Below are positions 8,195-20,000 of a DNA stretch of 20,000 nt, one piece after another. Source of the stretch: an uncultured virus (IMG/VR IMGVR_UViG_3300045902_000304) (taxonomy: Duplodnaviria; Heunggongvirae; Uroviricota; Caudoviricetes); IMG/VR virus record IMGVR_UViG_3300045902_000304; one strand, 5' to 3'. Under the pieces are notes generated by a model. That model was not told the origin of the DNA. It was given only the letters and a program-made list of their open reading frames with translations, and ran no database searches. The translations under genes and the position numbers were made by a program. The stretch's first letter is position 1; the number at the start of each line of letters is the position of its first letter.

Positions 8195-11100
8195 ATGAGT
8201 TTTCTGAACGAATTAAACGAGTACAATGGGAGAGCGGCAAGCAAGATAGCCGAACTAATTGCTCAACGCAATGAGTTAAAAGCTATAGGTGAGCCTGTGG
8301 CTGCTATTAACAAAAAGATAGCATTTATATCACAGCTTAAACAACTTGCCAATGATACAACGCTTAGCGATACACAGCGGCTTGAATACCTCACGTACTT
8401 AATAAACTATGCAGACCTGCTAAAGCAGCCTGTAGTACCTTTTACCCCCTATCAGCCAATACCCAATAACAACCCTTTATTTGCAGGGCAGCACAATGTC
8501 TTATCAGGGCTGCAAGGAGGCAATCCGGCATTGTTTGAATACTATCACGTAACCAACGCCCAAATAAGCTCATGGAACAATAAGGCGAGTTTGTCTGATA
8601 TAACCTTTAGTAACTTAGGTGGGCAGCCGTCAGACAATATTGCGCTTACCAATGTGCTTAATGGCAAGCAAAATATAATACCTAATGGGCTATCGGGGCA
8701 GTTTTATGCGTGGGATAAAACCTTTAAGTTTATCTATTGGAGTACGGTATCAGGCAAGCCCACAACGCTTGCAGGATATGGAGTTAGTGTAAATGACCCT
8801 TTGTTTGATGGTAAGTATTTGCAGCAAAGTAGTGTAGTAAACACCTATACAGTAGGCGCAAACACGCCAATATCCAATACCGACACAGTAGTGGGTATGT
8901 TTGGTAAGCTGCAAGGGCAGATAAATGCTTTGAGCGCATCGGCAGGAACAGTTACCTCAATAGGGATTGTAGGGCAGTCGGGGGTTTTTAGTATATCGAA
9001 TAGCCCAATAACAACAAATGGAAACATATCAATAGATTTCCAAAGTCAGCCCGCAAGAAATTTCTTAGCTTCTCCGACAGGAGGAAGTGGAGTTCCTACA
9101 TTTAGGACTATTACCTATGGAGACCTGCCAACGGCAATAACGCCGGGCGTTTATGGCTCTGCTACGGTAGTGCCTGTATTGACACTAAATGCACAAGGAA
9201 TAGTAACGGCTATATCTACTGCAACAATAGCGGGAGGGGGCAGTGTAACCAATGTGAGTGCGGGAAATTTGCTGCCATTATTTACTACAAACGTAAACAA
9301 TGCAAGCACTACTCCACAGATAAACTTTTCATTAGCCAATCAAAGCGCCAACTTAGTATTTGCCTCACCGGCAAGCGGCCCAGCGGGCGCTCCTTTATTC
9401 AGGGCATTAGTGCCTAATGATATACCCTCTGGTATTCCTATTTTTAAGATTTCTAATTTAACCGAAGAGTTAAACCAAAGAATTACCCGCAATGCAGTAC
9501 AATCGCAAATATTGGTAGCTAATGCAAGTAATCAGTTTGCACCTGTATTTATGAGTGGAGATGCCACTATAAATAATGTGGGTGAGATTACAATAAGTAC
9601 AGGGGCTGTTAGCTATTCAAAGATGCAGCCTACCAATGCGGGGCAGGTATTGCTTGGAAGGTTTGATGTAAATGCAGGTGAAATACAGCAAATAACTATT
9701 GGTAGCGGCTTATTTCTTGACCCAATAACAGGCATATTGACAAGTTTATTGGCCTCATTGCCTGACGGGGACTACGGAGAAATTACTGTATCTAATACAG
9801 GCTCTTTATGGATTATTAACAACAATGTAGTAGGCAACCAAAAAATCAGACAAAGTGTAGGGGCTTCTGTGATAGGCAGGGCAGCAGAGACAACGGGAGA
9901 TGTAGCCGATATAGTGGCAACTGAATATTCTGTATTACGAAAAGGCGCTGACGGCAATCCATTAGGATTTGGCTTATTACAAGCACAGCACCTTAACCCT
10001 ACGTTTTTATCAGGACAGGTATTAACAACTAACAATTTGGGTGTATTGTCATGGGTAAACCTTGCGGCAGGGGTAAGTGATGGCGACAAAGGAGACATAA
10101 CCGTATCCGGCGGAGGTGTTACATGGGCAATAAATAATCAGGCGGTTACCTATGCAAAGATACAAGATGTAGCGCCCAACTCTTTCTTAGCCAATGTAAC
10201 GGGCTCGCCTGCGGCTGTGCAAAGCATAAGTACGACAAGAATACCATTGTTTGCAACGGCAATAACAGGTACTGCTGATAACACTACATTTTTAAGAGGG
10301 GACGGCACTTGGGCTGTACCTTCCGGCGGTGGTGGTGGTGGCGGCACTAATAAAGTAACTTTTACTAACCAAACATCTGTAACAGTAACACACAACTTTG
10401 GATATGAGGTAATAATACAAGTATTTGATACAACAGGGAATAAGATAGTACCTGCCAATATACAAAACCAAAGTATAAATGCTTTTACGATAACTTTCCC
10501 AACTGCAACATCAGGATATATTATATACGGAGGATTAGGTGCAAGTGGTGGCTCGCCGGGTGGCACAAGCGGTGAAGTGCAATTCAACAATGGGGGTGCA
10601 TTTGGAGGTGTAAGCGGGGTAACGAGCGACGGAACTGCATTAACATTTAACACTGGCGCTTTATTGGGGGCTGATGCAAGAGCGGTAAGCTCGGCAGGGT
10701 TTATCATACAAAATAACGGAGCTCAAGATGTAGCTATATTTGGAGCAGGTGGTAATACCGGAGTATCTTTAATAGGAACAACCAATATAGGTTCAGGGGC
10801 TGCGGATTATTTACAAATAGCAGGAGGTACGGGTGCAACTATTGCAACAGCGCAAGGTAGTTCATCTAATATAGACATAAGATTTCAGCCAAAAGGTACA
10901 GGAGCAGTTGTAATAGGTGGTGGAACTCAAGCAACAGAGTTAAGGATATTGGAAGCAAGTGGGAATGGTAATAATTACACTGCTTTTAAAGTAGGAGCAA
11001 TGGCTGCTAATCTTGTATATACGCTACCATTGACAGGAGGTACAGGTGCTTTATTAAATGATGGGGCAGGTAATTTATCATGGGGTACTGTTGCAGCAGG

Positions 11101-13728: not shown

Positions 13729-15465
13729 ATGATACCTATAAACTTTTACCAACTGCACGCTCCTAATCAAGGGGCTATACCTGCTCTTGACCTTGTTCAA
13801 ATATTTAACTACTCTACCTCTCCTAATGGCTATTCTGTTTTTCACCCCAACGCTAACAGACCTTTTCAGGTAGTGATTGACTTAATGGTTAGTCATTTCG
13901 TTGAAACTCTTATACACGCTCCTGTAAATGGTGCACCTATAATTGAAGTGCATACTTCACCCAATAATATTGACTATGAGCTTATTGGTACGCTCAACAC
14001 TACTTTCACAAGGGAAGAAAGACAATTTGCAATTAACCGTACTTGCAGATATATTAGGCTTACTTGTATATCACAAACTATACGTTTCCCTTTTATCAAG
14101 TTTATAGGCTCACCAACAGGTAATGCTTTCAGGCAGCCTAATCTCAAAGTAGTACGCAAAAGGGTTTGTGATTATATTGGCTTTAATATGTGGCCTTCAT
14201 CAGAAGTTCGTTTCTATAAAGACCTCAACTTTAGCCACCACAGATATTTTATGTTTTTCCGTTTTCACCGAAACAGACCTGAAAAACATAAATCTTATGC
14301 CTTTAAACCTATGTACTCTGGTGTGGCCGTAAGAGAAGGTTTTAGAGATTTAGAAGATACTATTAAGGCTTATCCTAATCGTATTCACATTCTTTCTTAT
14401 TCTAATAATACACCATTTATTGGCCCTGAAAATGGTGCGCCTACTGACCTTAATCAATTGGCTCATTACGCTTATGCTTTAAGTGTGAGATATGGCAACA
14501 AAGAAATGCCGGAAGCAAATATTATAGATACTGATTTTCCTCGTTGGAGACCACAAGAAAATATTACAGGCTTAAACCTGCCTGTTGTTTTCAATATCAA
14601 TGAATACGAGGGGCATTGGAAAGCTGATAGGATTACTCCTAAAGTAGCAGCAGAGGCTTATATTCGCTCTGAAAGCAATAATCCGGGTAATATCATTATC
14701 ACTCCTAATGCTACGGCTGGCTACTCTTTTAACTTTTGGATTGAGTTTGCACAGTATCTTACTCCAACTCAAAGAAGAAAGGTTAAAGCTATTGAGTTTC
14801 ATAAGTATTTATATGGCAATGGCAATCAGCATGAAGGCAATATAAAAAGTGCAGTTGCTCCTGAATCTATTTCTTTTATTGATGACTTACGCAAGTTTAG
14901 GCTGATGTGTGCTGTATATTTCCCTAATGCTCAAGTGTGGCTGACTGAAATAGGCTATGAAACATCAGGGCTCACAAGGGCATCTGTACCTGATATACCT
15001 AATCAAACTTACGCTGAAACTCAAGGCTTATGGCTTGTAAGGGTAATGCTGCAAACTATGGCTGCGGGTATTGACTTTACTACAATATATGCTATAAGCG
15101 ACATAAATGACTTAGAAAGTGGGCTATACAATCGTTGTGGTTTATGGACAAGGGCAAATACTGAACCGGATGGTATAAGCAAGCCTAAAGCGTCTTACTT
15201 TATTGTCAAACGTTTTCTTGATACGCTTGGTAACTATACTTTTAGGCAGATGCAAAACCGAAACGATGGTGTATTTGAATACCGATTTTTGCTCAACAAT
15301 AGACAGGCTTTTGTGTTTAATACTTTAGAAAATAATGTTAAACAAATTACACTTAATATACCTTCGGGTAATTATACTTTATTAAATTTGCTCACCGGAG
15401 AGACGCATAGTGTAAAGCGTAACGACCGAATAAATGTTAATCACGTACCTGTTATTGTTTACTAA
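13729..15465 (+). CDS. Discoidin/F5-8-like domain + clan GH-A (TIM-barrel) glycoside hydrolase
   Basis: N-terminal 'VVIDL...IEVHTS.NN.DY...CRYIRL' fits a discoidin/CBM32-like pattern. The catalytic region has 'NINE' (acid/base), 'IEFHKY', 'VWLTEIGY' (nucleophile), 'ETQGLWLVR' and 'GL...KPKASY', typical of GH5/GH39-like clan A enzymes. Confidence 0.75.
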   Translation: MIPINFYQLHAPNQGAIPALDLVQIFNYSTSPNGYSVFHPNANRPFQVVIDLMVSHFVETLIHAPVNGAPIIEVHTSPNNIDYELIGTLNTTFTREERQFAINRTCRYIRLTCISQTIRFPFIKFIGSPTGNAFRQPNLKVVRKRVCDYIGFNMWPSSEVRFYKDLNFSHHRYFMFFRFHRNRPEKHKSYAFKPMYSGVAVREGFRDLEDTIKAYPNRIHILSYSNNTPFIGPENGAPTDLNQLAHYAYALSVRYGNKEMPEANIIDTDFPRWRPQENITGLNLPVVFNINEYEGHWKADRITPKVAAEAYIRSESNNPGNIIITPNATAGYSFNFWIEFAQYLTPTQRRKVKAIEFHKYLYGNGNQHEGNIKSAVAPESISFIDDLRKFRLMCAVYFPNAQVWLTEIGYETSGLTRASVPDIPNQTYAETQGLWLVRVMLQTMAAGIDFTTIYAISDINDLESGLYNRCGLWTRANTEPDGISKPKASYFIVKRFLDTLGNYTFRQMQNRNDGVFEYRFLLNNRQAFVFNTLENNVKQITLNIPSGNYTLLNLLTGETHSVKRNDRINVNHVPVIVY

Positions 15466-15468
15466 AAC

Positions 15469-15942
15469 ATGAAGGCTTTATTTGAAAGTAAATGGTTATA
15501 CATAACTGCTTTTTTGTTTACTTTTTTGGGCGCTGCGCTTGACAGTATAGTGGAAAGATTTAACATTAAGAAAACCCTTAATATTGATGGGGATAGTGCT
15601 GAATTGAGCTATTCTATTATCCCTTCACCTAAGAACATAGACACTATATTTGTTACTTTCAATGATGGGAATTTCAGGTTTTCTAAACACTATTTTACTG
15701 GTAGCATAGTTTGTTTTGTGTCTAATCATTCAATGGGTGATGTGCGGTATAGGATTTATGTGAAAGGGAGGGCTGACTGGTTGCTACATGAGCTTTTAGT
15801 GAGAGAAAAAGATGTAGGGGCTTGGTTTGAATTGAGATACAGAAAATCTATAACTCATTACGCTGTGCATTTACAATCTATTGATTACAAGGGCAGGGAG
15901 ATAAACACGAGAATAGTTATTCATCAAAGGGATTTGCTATGA
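15469..15942 (+). CDS. Hypothetical protein with an N-terminal transmembrane/signal segment
   Basis: 157 aa with hydrophobic 'WLYITAFLFTFLGAAL'; last gene of the + strand operon. Confidence 0.65.
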   Translation: MKALFESKWLYITAFLFTFLGAALDSIVERFNIKKTLNIDGDSAELSYSIIPSPKNIDTIFVTFNDGNFRFSKHYFTGSIVCFVSNHSMGDVRYRIYVKGRADWLLHELLVREKDVGAWFELRYRKSITHYAVHLQSIDYKGREINTRIVIHQRDLL

Positions 15943-16037
15943 TTTGATTATTACTTCGCAAATATAGGTTGCGCTTGCTTGGCTTTTATCTTTAATTGGG
16001 GATTTAAGGGTTAGTTGCTATTTCTAAAATAAACGAG

Positions 16038-16343
16038 TTAGCGGCAATTGCAAAGACGACACCAACCCATCCTAAAATTGTGTATCATTTTTTGTGTTTC
16101 CTCTTGCTCATTATGGTCAATCAAAAATGTGTATTTCTGTTTAACCCATTTATTTGTCAGCAAGTCCAAAACTTCGTATTCTGTTTCGTGTTGCATTTCC
16201 CCCATAAAAGCAATAGCATCTGTGTATGAATAAACGTATTCCTTTTCAAATTGCGACAACTGACTACCGCTAACATTGGTTTGTGGCAAGTGCGGTTGAC
16301 GTGGTTTAATCAGCCTCAGTAATTCTAATAATCTTCTGTACAT
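16038..16343 (-). CDS. Hypothetical cassette-borne protein (101 aa) whose N-terminus is encoded by the attC-like hairpin
   Basis: The ATG is preceded by A-rich aaaacaaaaccttaaaat. The ORF reads through the hairpin arm (PHLPQTNVSGS), and its TAA stop lies within the GTTAGC core at 16037. Confidence 0.7.
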   Translation of the reverse strand: MYRRLLELLRLIKPRQPHLPQTNVSGSQLSQFEKEYVYSYTDAIAFMGEMQHETEYEVLDLLTNKWVKQKYTFLIDHNEQEETQKMIHNFRMGWCRLCNCR

Positions 16344-16402
16344 ATTTTAAGGTTTTGTTTTTCAAAATCCGCACCTGACCACAAGTTAAGTGCCGTTAGC
16401 TG
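16267..16402 (+). mobile_element. Integron attC-like recombination site (136 bp)
   Basis: CCGCTAAC (16267-16274) ... GTTAGCTG (16395-16402) as outer boxes. Inner arms ttgtggcaagtgcgg (16281-16295) and ccgcacctgaccacaa (16369-16384) pair with one extra base and one mismatch, around an AT-rich central loop. Confidence 0.75.
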
Positions 16403-16407
16403 CAATA

Positions 16408-16836
16408 TTAAAGAGCAGACAGCCTTTTTAAAACATCAACAGGAATATGACCGTCAAAAGGATATTTAGCCTTTTCAACAGCAGGAATTTTAAACAAGTC
16501 CCAATCCTTTGCTTCATAGTGGTTTGATATTTGCCCAGTAGGCAGAACTGCAACTACAATAAACCACCCGCCTCCAAAGCAAAGTTCACCGTCATTGTGC
16601 TTCCAACTTTTATGAACGTCATATAGTGGTTCTTTCATATTTGGAGGCATACTTTTGCCTTCTTTAATCTTTATCTCATTAACATACCAATCTTTTGCCC
16701 ATTCGTTAAATAGTGCAGCGTTGTAAACTTTGCGAAACTCATATGGTTCTGCAAATGTATGATAGCCATTGGACGTTTGACTAATATCTTGTCCATCGTT
16801 TTTTAGGCTTTTAAGTAAGTCGTTTATTTTATTCAT
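16408..16836 (-). CDS. Conserved phage hypothetical protein, 'GYHTF...GWFIV...GQIS.H...DGH' (WDGH-type) family
   Basis: Likely start is MNKIND at 16836, since the ORF track extension to 16893 runs through the decayed attC. Motifs SNGYHTF, KSWKHNDG, GGGWFIV, LPTGQISNHY, WDLF and FDGH match a widespread phage family as I recall it. Confidence 0.7.
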   Translation of the reverse strand: MNKINDLLKSLKNDGQDISQTSNGYHTFAEPYEFRKVYNAALFNEWAKDWYVNEIKIKEGKSMPPNMKEPLYDVHKSWKHNDGELCFGGGWFIVVAVLPTGQISNHYEAKDWDLFKIPAVEKAKYPFDGHIPVDVLKRLSAL

Positions 16837-16845
16837 AAAATTGTG

Positions 16846-16954
16846 AAATACGGCAGGCAAAATGTGTTTTGTAATATAACGGTAAAAGTACAAAGTTCAT
16901 CGTTTATTGATAGTTTTGTGTTCCATATATTTTCAGGTTGACAATCGTTAGCTC
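16846..16954 (+). mobile_element. Degenerate second attC-like site
   Basis: Ends in GTTAGCTC (16947-16954). The left end aatacggcaggcaa matches the reverse complement of the preceding cassette start (aatattgcagctaa) at 10/14. Inner arms no longer pair well. Confidence 0.4.
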
Positions 16955-16968
16955 ATGAGCTTTAATCA

Positions 16969-17262
16969 CTAAGTACTAATCACGTGCATTGGAATAATTT
17001 TTTTGCCGTTACATACATCGCAGGTTTCAAATATAGCTCCTGAATAGGAAGACCCCATTATCCTGCCTGTTCCATTGCATACAGGGCAACATTGATATGG
17101 AACTACTGTAGCTTTATTTGATGTTGTCCAATCTATTATTTCAGGTTGCTTTGCGTATTCAATGACTTTATATAAATCATCTCTCATTTCATCACGGCAT
17201 TGTTCATTGTATTGTTTTGCCGGATTAGCCAACCACTTTTTTATAAATGCTTCTCTTGTCAT
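16969..17262 (-). CDS. Small protein (97 aa) with a DnaJ-type CxxCxGxG zinc-finger-like motif
   Basis: Contains CPVCNGTG...CDVCNGKK. Likely start is MTREAF at 17262, which overlaps the stop of the upstream 25-aa ORF (ATGA). Confidence 0.7.
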   Translation of the reverse strand: MTREAFIKKWLANPAKQYNEQCRDEMRDDLYKVIEYAKQPEIIDWTTSNKATVVPYQCCPVCNGTGRIMGSSYSGAIFETCDVCNGKKIIPMHVIST

Positions 17263-17336
17263 ATTCCGTGATTCATCAATTTTATGCAATTGGTAAAAAA
17301 AATAGATTCCCTGATTATCAATGTTGGCTTTATCAT
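17259..17336 (-). pseudogene. Truncated remnant of a fifth repeat-protein paralog (25-aa ORF)
   Basis: MIKPTLIIRESIFFTNCIKLMNHGI* compared with paralog N-caps MIKPRLIIRK/R. It is preceded by the same 11-nt spacer (acaatacaacc) found between paralogs B and A. Confidence 0.75.
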
Positions 17337-17347
17337 GGTTGTATTGT

Positions 17348-18061
17348 TTAAATATTAGCCCTGTTGTAGTTTTTACGGGCAAATTCGCAATTCATAATCA
17401 ACCAGCTCACATCTTCATAATCAGGCCGCAAACTCTTATAATACTCCAACATATCAATAGTTTGAGCAAATTCGCAAGTCTCAATCAACCAACGCACATC
17501 TTCATAACTTGGTTTCAACCCCTTGTAATACTCCAACATCTCCGGCGTTTGGGCATATTTGCAAGTCGTTATAAGCCATCTCACATCTTTATAACTTGGC
17601 TTTAAACCCTTGTAATACGCCAACATCTCCTGCGTTTGTGTGTATTCGCAATACCTTATCAAACAGTTTACATCTTTATAACTTGGATTTAAACTCTTGT
17701 AATATGCCAACATCTCCGGCGTTTGGGTATATTCGCAATTCCTTATCAACCAGTTTACATCTTTGTAACTTGGATTTAAACCCTTGTAATACTCCAGCAT
17801 CTCCTCCGTTTGTGCAAACTTGCAAGTCGTTATCAACCATCTAACATCTTCATAACCCGGCTGTAAACTCCTATAATACACCAACATCTCCGACGTTTGA
17901 GCACGCTTGCATTTTCTTATCAACCAACTAACATCTACATATAGCTCACCTCTCTTTTCTATCTCTTTAATTGCATTAAATTCATCCGGTAAATCAGCAT
18001 ATCTATCACAAGGAGTTTCCAGTAAGTCAGTCTTTCTAATTATCAATCTCGGCTTTTTCAT
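17348..18061 (-). CDS. 29-aa repeat protein, paralog A (N-cap 58 + 5 x 29 + C-cap 34 aa)
   Basis: Repeat consensus MLEYYKSLNPSYKDVSWLIxxCEFAQTxE; lengths sum to 237 aa. Confidence 0.92.
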   Translation of the reverse strand: MKKPRLIIRKTDLLETPCDRYADLPDEFNAIKEIEKRGELYVDVSWLIRKCKRAQTSEMLVYYRSLQPGYEDVRWLITTCKFAQTEEMLEYYKGLNPSYKDVNWLIRNCEYTQTPEMLAYYKSLNPSYKDVNCLIRYCEYTQTQEMLAYYKGLKPSYKDVRWLITTCKYAQTPEMLEYYKGLKPSYEDVRWLIETCEFAQTIDMLEYYKSLRPDYEDVSWLIMNCEFARKNYNRANI

Positions 18062-18072
18062 GGTTGTATTGT

Positions 18073-18525
18073 TTAAATATTAATCTTGTTGTAGTTTTCA
18101 CGGACAAAATCACAAGTCTCAATAAGCCAGCTCACATCTTTATCATCCGGGGTTAAACTCCTATAATACTCCAGCATTTCAACGGTTTGTGCAAATTCGC
18201 AATGCCTTATCAGCCAGTTCACATCTTCATAATCTGGATTTAACCCCATATAATACTCCAGCGTCTCCGATGTTTGTGCAAATTTGCAAGTCGCAATCAG
18301 CCAGCTCACATTTTCGTAATCCGGGTTCAACCCCTTGTAATACTCAAACATTTCCTGCGTCTGTGCAATTTTGCAATGCTTTATCAGCCAGCTTACGTCA
18401 TCATACCTATTACCACGCTTCTCTATCTCGGCAACTACATCAAACTCATTAGGTAAATCAGCATATCTATCACAAGGTTTATCCAGTAAGTCAGTCTTTC
18501 TGATTATCAATCTCGGCTTTATCAT
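18073..18525 (-). CDS. 29-aa repeat protein, paralog B (58 + 2 x 29 + 34 aa)
   Basis: Same caps and repeat; 150 aa. Confidence 0.92.
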   Translation of the reverse strand: MIKPRLIIRKTDLLDKPCDRYADLPNEFDVVAEIEKRGNRYDDVSWLIKHCKIAQTQEMFEYYKGLNPDYENVSWLIATCKFAQTSETLEYYMGLNPDYEDVNWLIRHCEFAQTVEMLEYYRSLTPDDKDVSWLIETCDFVRENYNKINI

Positions 18526-18539
18526 GGTCTTTCTATTGT

Positions 18540-19253
18540 TTAAATGCTAACCTTGTTGTAGTTTTCACGGACAAATGTGCAATTCTTTATCAGCCAATTC
18601 ACATTTTTATAACTCGGCTTTAAACTCTTGTAATACGCCAACATATCAGTAATTTGGGCATATTTGCAAAACCTTATCAGTGAACTCACATCTTTATAGC
18701 TCGGATTCAAACTCTTGTAATACTCCAACATTCCCAAAGTCTGTGCAAACTCACAATACCTAATCAGCCAACTCACATCTACATAGCTCGGATTCAAACT
18801 CTTGTAATACTCTATCATCTCCGTAGTTTGAGCAAACTCGCACTCCCTAATAAGCCAACTTACATCTACATAGCTCGGCTTTAAACTCTTGTAATACTCC
18901 AACATCTTTGTGGTCTGTGCTAACTCGCACTCCCTAATAAGCAAACTCACATCTCCATAGTCAGGATTCAAACTCTTGTAATATTCCAGCATCTTTGTGG
19001 TCTGTGCAAACTCGCAATTCCTAATCAGCCAACTAACATCTACATAATCCGGCTTTAAACTCTTGTAATACTCCAGCATTCCCTTAGTCTGTGCTAACTC
19101 GCAATACCTAATAAACCAGTTGACATCCGCATACTTATTACCTCTATTCTCTATCTCTTCAACTACATCAAACTCTTCCGGTAAATCAGCATATCTGTCG
19201 CAAAGCTTTTTGGGCAAGTCGCTTCTCCTGATTATTAATCTTGGTTTTATCAT
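18540..19253 (-). CDS. 29-aa repeat protein, paralog C (58 + 5 x 29 + 34 aa)
   Basis: Same caps and repeat; 237 aa. Confidence 0.92.
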   Translation of the reverse strand: MIKPRLIIRRSDLPKKLCDRYADLPEEFDVVEEIENRGNKYADVNWFIRYCELAQTKGMLEYYKSLKPDYVDVSWLIRNCEFAQTTKMLEYYKSLNPDYGDVSLLIRECELAQTTKMLEYYKSLKPSYVDVSWLIRECEFAQTTEMIEYYKSLNPSYVDVSWLIRYCEFAQTLGMLEYYKSLNPSYKDVSSLIRFCKYAQITDMLAYYKSLKPSYKNVNWLIKNCTFVRENYNKVSI

Positions 19254-19264
19254 TGTTGTATTCT

Positions 19265-19999
19265 TTAAATATTAACCTTGTTATAGTTCTCACGGACAAA
19301 CGTGCAATTCTTTATCAGCCAATTCACATTGTTATCATCCGGTTTCAACCTTTTGTAATACGCCAACATCTCCTTTGTTTGAGCATATTTGCAATCTAAA
19401 ATCAGCCAACTCACATCTTTATAACCCGGCTGCAAACTCTTATAATACTCCAACATCTCCTTTGTTTTAGCATATCTGCAATCTAAAATCAGCCAGCTAA
19501 CATCTTTATAATCTGGCTGCAAACTCTTATAATACTCCAGCATCTCCGGCCTCTGTGCAAATTCGCAATTCGTTATTAGCCATCTTACATCTTTATAACT
19601 CGGCTGCAAACTCTTGTAATACTCCAACATCTCTGACGTTTGTGCATATTTGCAAAAACTTATCAACCAGTTCACATCTTCATAACTCGGGTTCAACCCC
19701 TTGTAATACCCCAACATCTCCGGCGTTTGGGTATATTCACAATTCCTTATCAACCAGTTTACATCTTTATAACTTGGCTTTAAACCCTTGTAATACTCCA
19801 ACATTTCCTCAGTCTGTGCAAACTTGCAAAAACGTATCAGACTGTTCACATTTTCATAACTTGGATTTAACCCCTTGTAAAACGCCAACATCTCATCCGT
19901 CTGTGCAAACTTGCAATTCGTTATCAGCCATCCCGCATCTTCATAATCTGGTTTCAGACTTTTGTAAAACGCCAACATCTCATCCGTCTGTGCAAACTT
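19265..19999 (-). CDS. 29-aa repeat protein, paralog D (at least 7 x 29 + C-cap; 5'-truncated by the window edge)
   Basis: The frame is open to the window end (KFAQTDE precedes the ORF-track Met at 19978). The N-cap is not in the window. Confidence 0.9.
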   Translation of the reverse strand, partial: KFAQTDEMLAFYKSLKPDYEDAGWLITNCKFAQTDEMLAFYKGLNPSYENVNSLIRFCKFAQTEEMLEYYKGLKPSYKDVNWLIRNCEYTQTPEMLGYYKGLNPSYEDVNWLISFCKYAQTSEMLEYYKSLQPSYKDVRWLITNCEFAQRPEMLEYYKSLQPDYKDVSWLILDCRYAKTKEMLEYYKSLQPGYKDVSWLILDCKYAQTKEMLAYYKRLKPDDNNVNWLIKNCTFVRENYNKVNI

Positions 20000-20000
20000 G

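Follow-up and report, generated by a model that had tools for sequence, protein, structure and literature searches.

Organization of the locus

The DNA analysed here is a stretch of 20,000 nucleotides from an uncultured virus, referred to below as the window. It covers a phage structural region, with portal-like and tail-fibre-like proteins and a protein of 1339 amino acids encoded on the + strand, after which a block of genes on the - strand extends from about 16040 to 20000. Within this block, a gene for a WDGH-domain protein (16408..16893, - strand; PF25311, E 1.2e-30) is the upstream neighbour of an imperfect hairpin (16267..16402, - strand), which is a candidate recombination site by its folds, its conservation and the pair covariation of its family. 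A gene for a protein of 101 amino acids (16038..16343, - strand) begins inside the hairpin: its ATG (16343-16341) lies in the loop, the loop and right arm encode codons 1-27 (MYRRLLELLRLIKPRQPHLPQTNVSGS; 16263..16343, - strand), here called the leader, and the stop codon (16040-16038) is contained in a short distal box (16037..16044) that reads GTTAGCGG, or CCGCTAAC on the gene strand. Hairpin and gene together form a cassette of 358 bp (16038..16395, - strand), as judged from homology limits and linkage. Its upstream border is a GTTA box (16395..16398; TAAC on the gene strand), where conservation begins in all alignments and where the crossover would fall.

The window contains one intact solo cassette and a single hairpin on the gene strand. 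A distant blastn search of GenBank phages with 15400-17400 returned two records, each covering 7% of the query, and no close relative, and an IMG/VR search with a neighbouring 578-aa protein returned no relative. No recombinase family, PF00589 included, was matched among the 16 open reading frames (ORFs) of the window that were scanned.

A 128-nt hairpin core with TAAC and GTTA feet

An initial annotation, made from the sequence alone, described a 136-bp imperfect hairpin whose inner box is repeated in reverse complement at the far end of the gene, and both parts of this observation are confirmed. On the + strand, the inner box CCGCTAAC occupies 16267-16274 and the outer box GTTAGCTG occupies 16395-16402, with inner arms at 16287-16295 and 16369-16377. 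The bases CAGC of the mismatched left box are supplied by the 3' end of the WDGH gene. The sequence GTTAGCGG at 16037-16044 matches the reverse complement of 16267-16274 in all eight positions. The core of the hairpin, from TAAC to GTTA, spans 128 nt (16271-16398), and its ends read TAACG...TGTTA on the gene strand.

Both strands of the 136 nt were folded as single-stranded DNA. The + strand gave -16.8 kcal/mol (z -2.28, with 3 of 200 shuffles as good) and the - strand -18.3 kcal/mol (z -2.75, 1 of 200). Taken alone, these statistics are modest. When the gene strand of the window was scanned for TAAC...GTTA pairs, the arm duplex at 16271-16398 reached -17 to -17.8 kcal/mol, against -8.1 for the runner-up, and the + strand yielded one weak and unrelated match (8610-8782, -12.5 kcal/mol). 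The combination of the fold, its uniqueness in the window, the conserved sharp borders and the repeated box match described below is therefore decisive for the reality of the hairpin. When 15800-16600 was compared with the full set of 4227 Rfam families (E up to 10), nothing fell on the hairpin and no attC family was matched; the three sub-threshold matches (mir-286, a lncRNA and a snoRNA) were treated as chance.

The 101-aa gene and its hairpin-encoded leader

The 101-aa ORF is a real gene, with 17 full-length relatives of 55-83% identity. None of these relatives carries a Pfam family or an informative name, and the protein itself matched no Pfam or PHROG family above cut-off and had no usable match in the protein atlas. 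The mean pLDDT of its AlphaFold2 model is 65, and a Foldseek search of the model against the PDB gave no match at E up to 0.001.

The leader has a distribution of its own. When the 101-aa protein served as the query of a translated search, 12 loci were retrieved from IMG/VR, 10 of which match a stretch of residues ranging from 1-24 to 1-45 only, and in a protein search about 30 proteins had just the first 27% of the query in common with it. Conversely, three relatives of the protein lack both the leader and the C-terminus that derives from the distal box, so the hairpin-encoded leader is an add-on to a pre-existing gene. On the cassette reading, the gene would be recently mobile cargo that lies outside the phage core.

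The same hairpin precedes unrelated genes

A hairpin of about 130 nt with roughly 90% identity to that of the window was found in 38 distinct contexts on phage and metagenome contigs. Searches for exact matches to a 20-23-nt segment of one arm retrieved 10 IMG/VR stretches, 33 metagenome contigs and one contig of a Cytophagaceae metagenome-assembled genome (MAG); the window has one copy, against 0.01 expected by chance. In DNA alignments of these loci about 130 nt are conserved, with sharp borders at TAAC and GTT and unrelated flanks, and 35 aligned copies have a mean column identity of 83%. The arm used for searching is invariant by construction, and the other arm, which did not serve as a query, is conserved too. 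Behind the hairpin the reading frame runs on into about 14 unrelated small proteins, as counted by eye. The initial annotation had made its reading depend on homologous hairpins flanking unrelated genes elsewhere, and such hairpins thus exist.

The box relation recurs with these cargos. The end of the cargo can be read in 36 of the 38 distinct copies, and the eight bases behind the hairpin equal the reverse complement of the cargo end in all eight positions in 27 of these 36, in seven positions in six and in fewer in three; such a match was attained in 2 of 2000 random trials. Five box types, AGCG, AGTG, ATAC, AGGC and ATAA, co-vary in this way; written in full they are GTTAGCGG, GTTAGTGG, GTTATACG, GTTAGGCG and GTTATAAG. 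In two loci (L011 and L127) whose cargo box differs from the common one, the opposite foot of the hairpin itself mismatches the cargo box, which argues that the boxes belong to the cargo, as they do in integron cassettes.

The contig of the Cytophagaceae MAG carries a variant of the hairpin. Its best recombinase match has 34% identity, in an open frame of 313 amino acids, and our guess is that it represents a housekeeping Xer.

Limits of the cassette

The same cassette, hairpin and 101-aa gene together, is present in three other contexts. In two loci (L001 and L126) homology to the window covers exactly 16037-16398 between unrelated flanks, with protein identities of 79-83%. The third is a 589-nt contig from a public sequencing run (record 22, run X6), which matches 16037-16375 and diverges directly before 16037. 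Five further contigs from public runs match within 16263-16399 only and diverge at both sides; the divergence point of the run contigs is 16398/16399. These runs were searched as assembled contigs, with X2 and X4 representing one sample and X1 possibly the source sample of the window. Among the assembled contigs, which lose rare variants, none joined the sequences on either side of 16038-16395 and no circular junction was listed.

The breakpoints predicted by the initial annotation are thus found at the boxes, with homology ending exactly at TAAC/GTTA in L001, L126 and the X6 contig. The evidence places the crossover within the four bases GTTA and does not support the more specific proposal of G|TT; the 4-nt GTTA repeats at 16037-16040 and 16395-16398 leave the register of the cassette ambiguous.

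Since the box relation is symmetric, it cannot tell whether a gene travels with the preceding or the following hairpin. Linkage is informative here. Among homologous cargos in differing contexts, the upstream hairpin alone was kept in 21 pairs and the downstream hairpin alone in none. This count is biased by the search, since 20 of the 21 pairs come from loci that had been found through this very hairpin and one pair (L055 and L056) is unbiased. A search with the cargo only, which found locus L141, recovered the same upstream hairpin in four of four loci. Linkage together with the unbiased cases indicates that the cassette consists of the hairpin plus the gene behind it, 16038-16395, so that the limits first proposed agree with the linkage evidence, thin as this becomes once search bias is removed. 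The cassette reading of the initial annotation is supported overall.

A unit made of a gene and its downstream hairpin was also considered and was rejected: one cargo is followed by eight different downstream sequences, and conservation of the downstream side alone was seen in no pair.

A wider family of hairpins in polar arrays

Many loci carry another hairpin behind the cargo, different in sequence and of the same build. We scanned the collected loci for TAAC and GTTA separated by 80-185 nt and joined by an arm duplex of -12 kcal/mol or better, counting both strands. This gave 417 matches in 865 kb, against 38 in block-shuffled sequence. Related loci have arrays of up to nine hairpins (up to seven in the 865-kb scan).

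The complementarity seen at the window extends through these arrays. The right box of a hairpin complements the left box of the next one at all four variable positions in 46 of 75 neighbouring pairs, a set that may still include loci overlapping in reverse orientation; many of the 29 incompletely complementary pairs are more than 900 bp apart, and a hairpin between them may have been missed. Within a single hairpin, the left box is fully complementary to the right box in 3 of 74 cases, and re-dealt neighbours lead one to expect 4.4. The principle invoked by the initial annotation for integrated cassettes, that the inverse core matches the start of the cassette's own gene unit and not that of the next, therefore holds family-wide, with 27 of 36 copies of the window's hairpin and 46 of 75 neighbouring pairs conforming to it.

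Covariation supports a conserved structure. RNAalifold was applied to the 107 diverse long hairpins that were left after duplicates had been removed at 75% arm identity, and returned 13 consensus pairs, 12 of which have compensatory changes. The share of paired cells was 92.7%, compared with 56.8% in shuffles and 35-47% in slid controls, a share that is partly built in because the hairpins had been pre-selected on arm duplex energy. The covariation test contributes a further point, namely that pairs of many types recur at shared alignment columns; the covariation score was 0.81 against 0.19, and none of 500 shuffles attained either this value or the paired-cell value.

The two strands of the hairpins are not equivalent. 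Of 257 hairpins, 232 have the more stable arms on the sense strand of the gene, 18 have the less stable arms there and 7 show no difference. At attC sites of integrons, strand choice is set by extrahelical bases on the bottom strand. The asymmetry of the phage hairpins consists of G.T pairs and an uneven internal loop: there are 607 G.T pairs on the gene-sense strand, 257 of them belonging to the polarity signature used, and 106 on the other strand, and one G.T pair is conserved in 103 of the 107 hairpins. A G.T bias on the sense strand is equally compatible with folding of the mRNA. Of 290 unique hairpins, 205 have an ORF of at least 40 amino acids that begins at a start codon in the loop and runs through the right arm; the other 85 have no such loop-start ORF.

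The neighbour of the cassette in the window is itself known as cargo elsewhere. In four loci (L055, L056, L057 and L067) the WDGH gene is a cassette cargo between hairpins with the boxes GTTATAGG and CCTATAAC. The box expected after the hairpin of the WDGH gene is absent from the window, so the gene looks fixed there.

A Xer-like recombinase adjoins the arrays

On one contig with the hairpin of the window (L006), an array of small genes on the + strand runs up to a gene (5667-6473 of L006) for a tyrosine recombinase of 268 amino acids. The best model for this enzyme is XerA_Arch, with 184 bits against a cut-off of 220, and it scores well below the cut-offs of the integron-integrase models TIGR02249 (151 bits, cut-off 265) and PRK15417 (104 bits, cut-off 435). 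Among solved structures, an archaeal XerA-like protein was matched in one stretch with 133 bits, compared with two broken stretches and 95 bits for IntI4, whose chain of 320 residues is also longer.

The position of the hairpins relative to this gene is strictly regular. In 80 IMG/VR loci with relatives of the recombinase, all 197 hairpins found lie upstream of the gene, within 5 kb, and none lies inside or downstream of it; about 70 of the loci have 5 kb of downstream flank. At least one hairpin is present in 61 of the 80 loci, most of the others having little upstream flank, and shuffled versions of the 80 loci contained none. By the TAACG...TGTTA signature, 169 hairpins are co-oriented with the recombinase gene and none is opposite, with 18 left without a call.

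Insertion of the cassette had been attributed to an IntI-like recombinase. This part of the initial annotation is not supported: the enzyme beside the arrays is Xer-like and falls below the integron-integrase cut-offs, and the search for an intI-like recombinase on the contig gave no match among the 16 ORFs scanned. PF00589 was likewise absent from four of five phage records that carry this hairpin, including records rated 93% and 100% complete. In the 93%-complete record, of 84 kb, the hairpin is single and the sole member of its family. Solo cassettes without an enzyme thus seem common, which suggests insertion in trans.

A proposed cassette system of phages

From the computed structure, conservation, cassette logic, arrays, recombinase link and strand bias we infer a recombination pathway in which the enzyme would act on the hairpin itself. 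The gene-sense strand, when single-stranded, would fold into the hairpin, and the folded site would be recognised by the short Xer-like tyrosine recombinase that related phages encode directly downstream of their arrays. A single strand would be exchanged inside TAAC, the box at the hairpin's 5' foot, a place that corresponds to the G|TT position on the + strand, and cassettes could be excised as circles and inserted at other TAAC-footed sites. Such a mechanism would explain why the last eight bases of a cassette complement the eight that follow its own hairpin, and not the box at the other foot. With no recombinase among the 16 window ORFs scanned, and none in four of the five phage records with this hairpin, the enzyme would need to act in trans; a co-infecting phage or the host may have provided it when the cassette was inserted behind the WDGH gene, where it is perhaps now fixed. 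We consider it likely that 16038-16395 is a solo mobile cassette of an integron-like phage system that relies on a Xer-like enzyme and that it was inserted in trans.

One crossover at the left box leaves two facts unexplained. One is that a hairpin of about 90% identity precedes some 14 unrelated genes and has another sharp break at its right box; the other is that WDGH cargos have differing hairpins before and behind them. An exchange involving the opposite strand might be the source of both, as might the manner in which cassettes arise.

Other explanations share some of these features. Integrons follow exactly the same cassette logic, and the outer boxes (AAC/GTT), the internal loops, the variable loop and the length of about 128 nt would all suit a true attC site in a canonical integron cassette, recombined by the IntI of the host or of another element. 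Phages are known to carry such sites, as the accessible text of one study reports 17 attC clusters without integrase in phages and recombination of five of six phage attC sites by IntI1 (Qi et al., 2023; PMC9892861). We nevertheless regard a canonical integron cassette as very unlikely, as the array-side recombinase falls below the integron-integrase cut-offs, is closer to XerA and has 268 amino acids as opposed to 320, and the genes begin in the hairpin on the folding strand, the reverse of the integron convention. In our scan the family was moreover absent from the methyltransferase region of Polaribacter phage P12002L, one of the published cases; the two weak matches of the scan both lie inside structural genes. 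The hairpins could instead be regulatory modules, acting as a terminator, a 5' stem-loop of the mRNA or a translation start, between which genes are shuffled by homologous recombination, in the manner of the promoter/stem-loop cassettes of T4-type phages. The start codon and an A-rich stretch in the loop, the G.T (G.U) pairs of the sense strand and the solo copies in phages without a recombinase would fit, and a hairpin conserved at about 90% could act as a homology patch. Homologous exchange cannot, however, produce cargos whose two ends are complementary and co-vary, array neighbours that differ in sequence offer it little homology, and it does not account for strictly polar arrays that abut a recombinase gene; we give this possibility a shade less credence than the canonical cassette.

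The strand bias and the start codon in the loop, with 205 of 290 hairpins opening an ORF of at least 40 amino acids, would also be expected if the hairpins served at the RNA level only, in leader translation or mRNA stability, and had spread through selection on expression. An RNA role could well coexist with recombination. As the sole explanation it is more improbable again, for the 85 hairpins without a loop-start ORF and the sharp breaks at TAAC and GTTA in unrelated genomes speak against it, as do the complementary cargo ends, the dissimilar array neighbours and the polar arrays at the recombinase. Least credible of all is a miniature transposable element, or an IS200/IS605-type end, inserting 3' of TAAC under the action of an HUH (Y1) transposase. 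The sub-terminal position of the hairpin, the fixed tetranucleotide at both borders and the lack of a target duplication beyond TAAC are reminiscent of such elements, but the Y1 transposase family PF01797 was found in none of the five phage records with the hairpin (it was present in 6 of 14 well-known genomes used as a control), the hairpin is not multi-copy, with one copy in the window and one in the 84-kb record, the element carries a conserved gene, and the arrays abut a tyrosine recombinase.

Comparison with known systems

The integron-like phage system proposed here has much in common with integrons proper. In both, cassettes are bounded by imperfect hairpins with AAC/GTT feet, the ends of a cassette are complementary to each other while the integrated site is a hybrid, arrays adjoin a tyrosine recombinase gene, and one family of sites serves many cargos. 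Near-identical attC sites are a feature of sedentary chromosomal integrons, such as those with the Vibrio cholerae repeats, and the phage core of 128 nt falls inside the range of about 57-141 nt that the initial annotation gave for attC sites. Along the attC bottom strand, the array of an integron precedes intI, which is in sense. Read along their folding strand, with each hairpin before its gene and the array before an in-sense recombinase, the phage arrays have this same layout with the cargo genes flipped. Integron cargo is a promoterless ORF that lies upstream of attC on the top strand and is served by a common promoter at attI, whereas the ORF of the window starts at ATG 16343 in the loop and runs away from it on the better-folding strand. 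The phage system further differs in its Xer-like recombinase, below the integron-integrase cut-offs, where integrons have IntI, a tyrosine recombinase with a specific extra helix, in the invariant TAAC/GTTA box with its conserved G.T pair, and in being carried by phages.

Two other systems offer partial parallels. CTX phage integrates at dif through the action of XerCD on folded single-stranded phage DNA, by exchange of one strand. A Xer-type enzyme would likewise act on a single-stranded phage hairpin in the arrays described here; unlike these, CTX inserts a whole phage genome into one chromosomal site, with no cassettes or arrays, and its site mimics the 28-bp dif. T4-type phages contain small accessory genes flanked by conserved promoter and stem-loop modules, which are shuffled among relatives by exchange that is thought to be homologous. 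The likeness lies in small phage accessory genes that are reshuffled beside conserved stem-loops; the T4-type modules are not known to have cassette ends that complement each other and co-vary, or a recombinase of their own.

A further precedent is provided by the phage clusters of attC sites lacking integron-integrases (CALINs), which share with the present system site-bounded cassettes in virulent phages, the absence of a nearby integrase and a proposed trade in cassettes (Qi et al., 2023; PMC9892861). A CALIN comprises at least two nearby attC sites without an integrase, as defined in the accessible text of that study (PMC9892861), and the window, with its one site, falls outside this definition. 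That study used the bacterial attC model to call its sites and IntI1 to test them, and its accessible text makes no mention of a Xer-like partner, a start codon in the loop or a TAAC/GTTA family (PMC9892861). Beyond these CALINs, the literature covered by our search, which extends to few subscription journals, contained no TAAC/GTTA hairpin cassette system with a Xer-like recombinase.

Significance

The acquisition and shuffling of small accessory genes in phages, many of which likely serve in counter-defence or host takeover, are largely unexplained beyond the term 'mosaicism'. The phages that carry the hairpins probably infect Bacteroidota. With less assurance than for the cassette itself, we favour the broader view that phages of Bacteroidota-type hosts run an IntI-independent counterpart of the integron, in which each hairpin, unlike attC, would be both the recombination site and an expression module that provides a start codon and a leader of 20-27 codons, and in which solo cassettes would be traces of exchange during co-infection. 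If this is true, every cassette would be self-expressing wherever it is inserted, and unrelated phages would have a common market of accessory genes. Phage mosaicism would gain a defined mechanism in the form of a structure-specific cassette system, which would represent a second, apparently independent solution to the problem that integrons solve and would tie Xer-type enzymes to folded single-strand recombination beyond the case of CTX phage. Accessory genes of phages could then be collected from metagenomes simply by scanning for the hairpins and reading between them.

Conserved features of the hairpin family

In alignment A5, which brings together 107 diverse long hairpins of the TAAC...GTTA family, the second helix has a G.T pair at its base (columns 31 and 166) that is kept in 103 members, although these otherwise differ greatly from one another. 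This pair may serve as a recognition mark or as a mark of the strand. Hairpins counted at the phage recombinase loci fall into two length classes, one of approximately 86-91 nt and the other of approximately 123-130 nt. In the short class, 51 of 74 hairpins are devoid of a loop start codon leading into a long open reading frame.

Variant copies of both hairpin and cassette were also observed. In the metagenome contig L127, one cassette occurs twice in tandem, the copies being 591 bp apart, with the same leader and 59-aa cargo in each and with the left arm truncated in one of the two. A contig from a Cytophagaceae metagenome-assembled genome (L103) carries a hairpin with the same right arm and a longer, different loop lacking the leader ORF; no typical array was found near this variant.

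Recombinase relatives in Bacteroidia

Relatives of the 268-aa Xer-like phage recombinase, 38-49% identical to it, are present in 172 of the 401 sampled Bacteroidia genomes, a tally that includes one unpublished genome (G100). These relatives are encoded by longer open frames, mostly of 270-550 aa and commonly of 360-400 aa. TAAC...GTTA hairpins lie within 1.5 kb of the recombinase relative in 6 of the 25 Bacteroidia loci read (L224-L248). In all six the hairpins are downstream of the recombinase gene and of opposite polarity, whereas in the phage arrays they are upstream and, where their polarity could be called, co-oriented with the gene.

Surroundings of the cassette in the window

Upstream of the cassette, the box GAGCTAAC (16954-16947, gene strand) is located 5' of the WDGH gene (16408-16893, minus strand), and a stretch similar to the hairpin loop accompanies it within 16894-16954; together, box and stretch may represent a decayed hairpin. 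The N-terminus of the WDGH protein resembles, as judged by eye, a diverged leader. On the other side, 27 nt past the cassette end, a third GTTAG-type box, GTTAGTTG (16010-16017), belongs to direct-repeat family D1 and could be either the remnant of an old site or a chance occurrence. In L126, a locus with the same cassette in another context, GCTAAC likewise occurs a second time, a few bases beyond the cassette end.

Further upstream, four neighbouring paralogous genes occupy 17348-20000 on the minus strand and encode proteins of 237, 150, 237 and more than 237 aa, in which a unit of about 30 aa, typified by ...EMLEYYKSLNPSYKDVSWLIRNCEFAQT..., is repeated in tandem. They are separated by only 11-14 nt, no TAAC...GTTA hairpins are found between them, and a family search returned nothing above the cut-off.

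Cargo relatives outside the cassette format

Three protein relatives of the 101-aa cargo (P0016-P0018) are leaderless, and their C-terminus is longer than that of the cargo and different from it. Because they represent the cargo gene in a form other than a cassette, they could aid in reconstructing the birth of a cassette.
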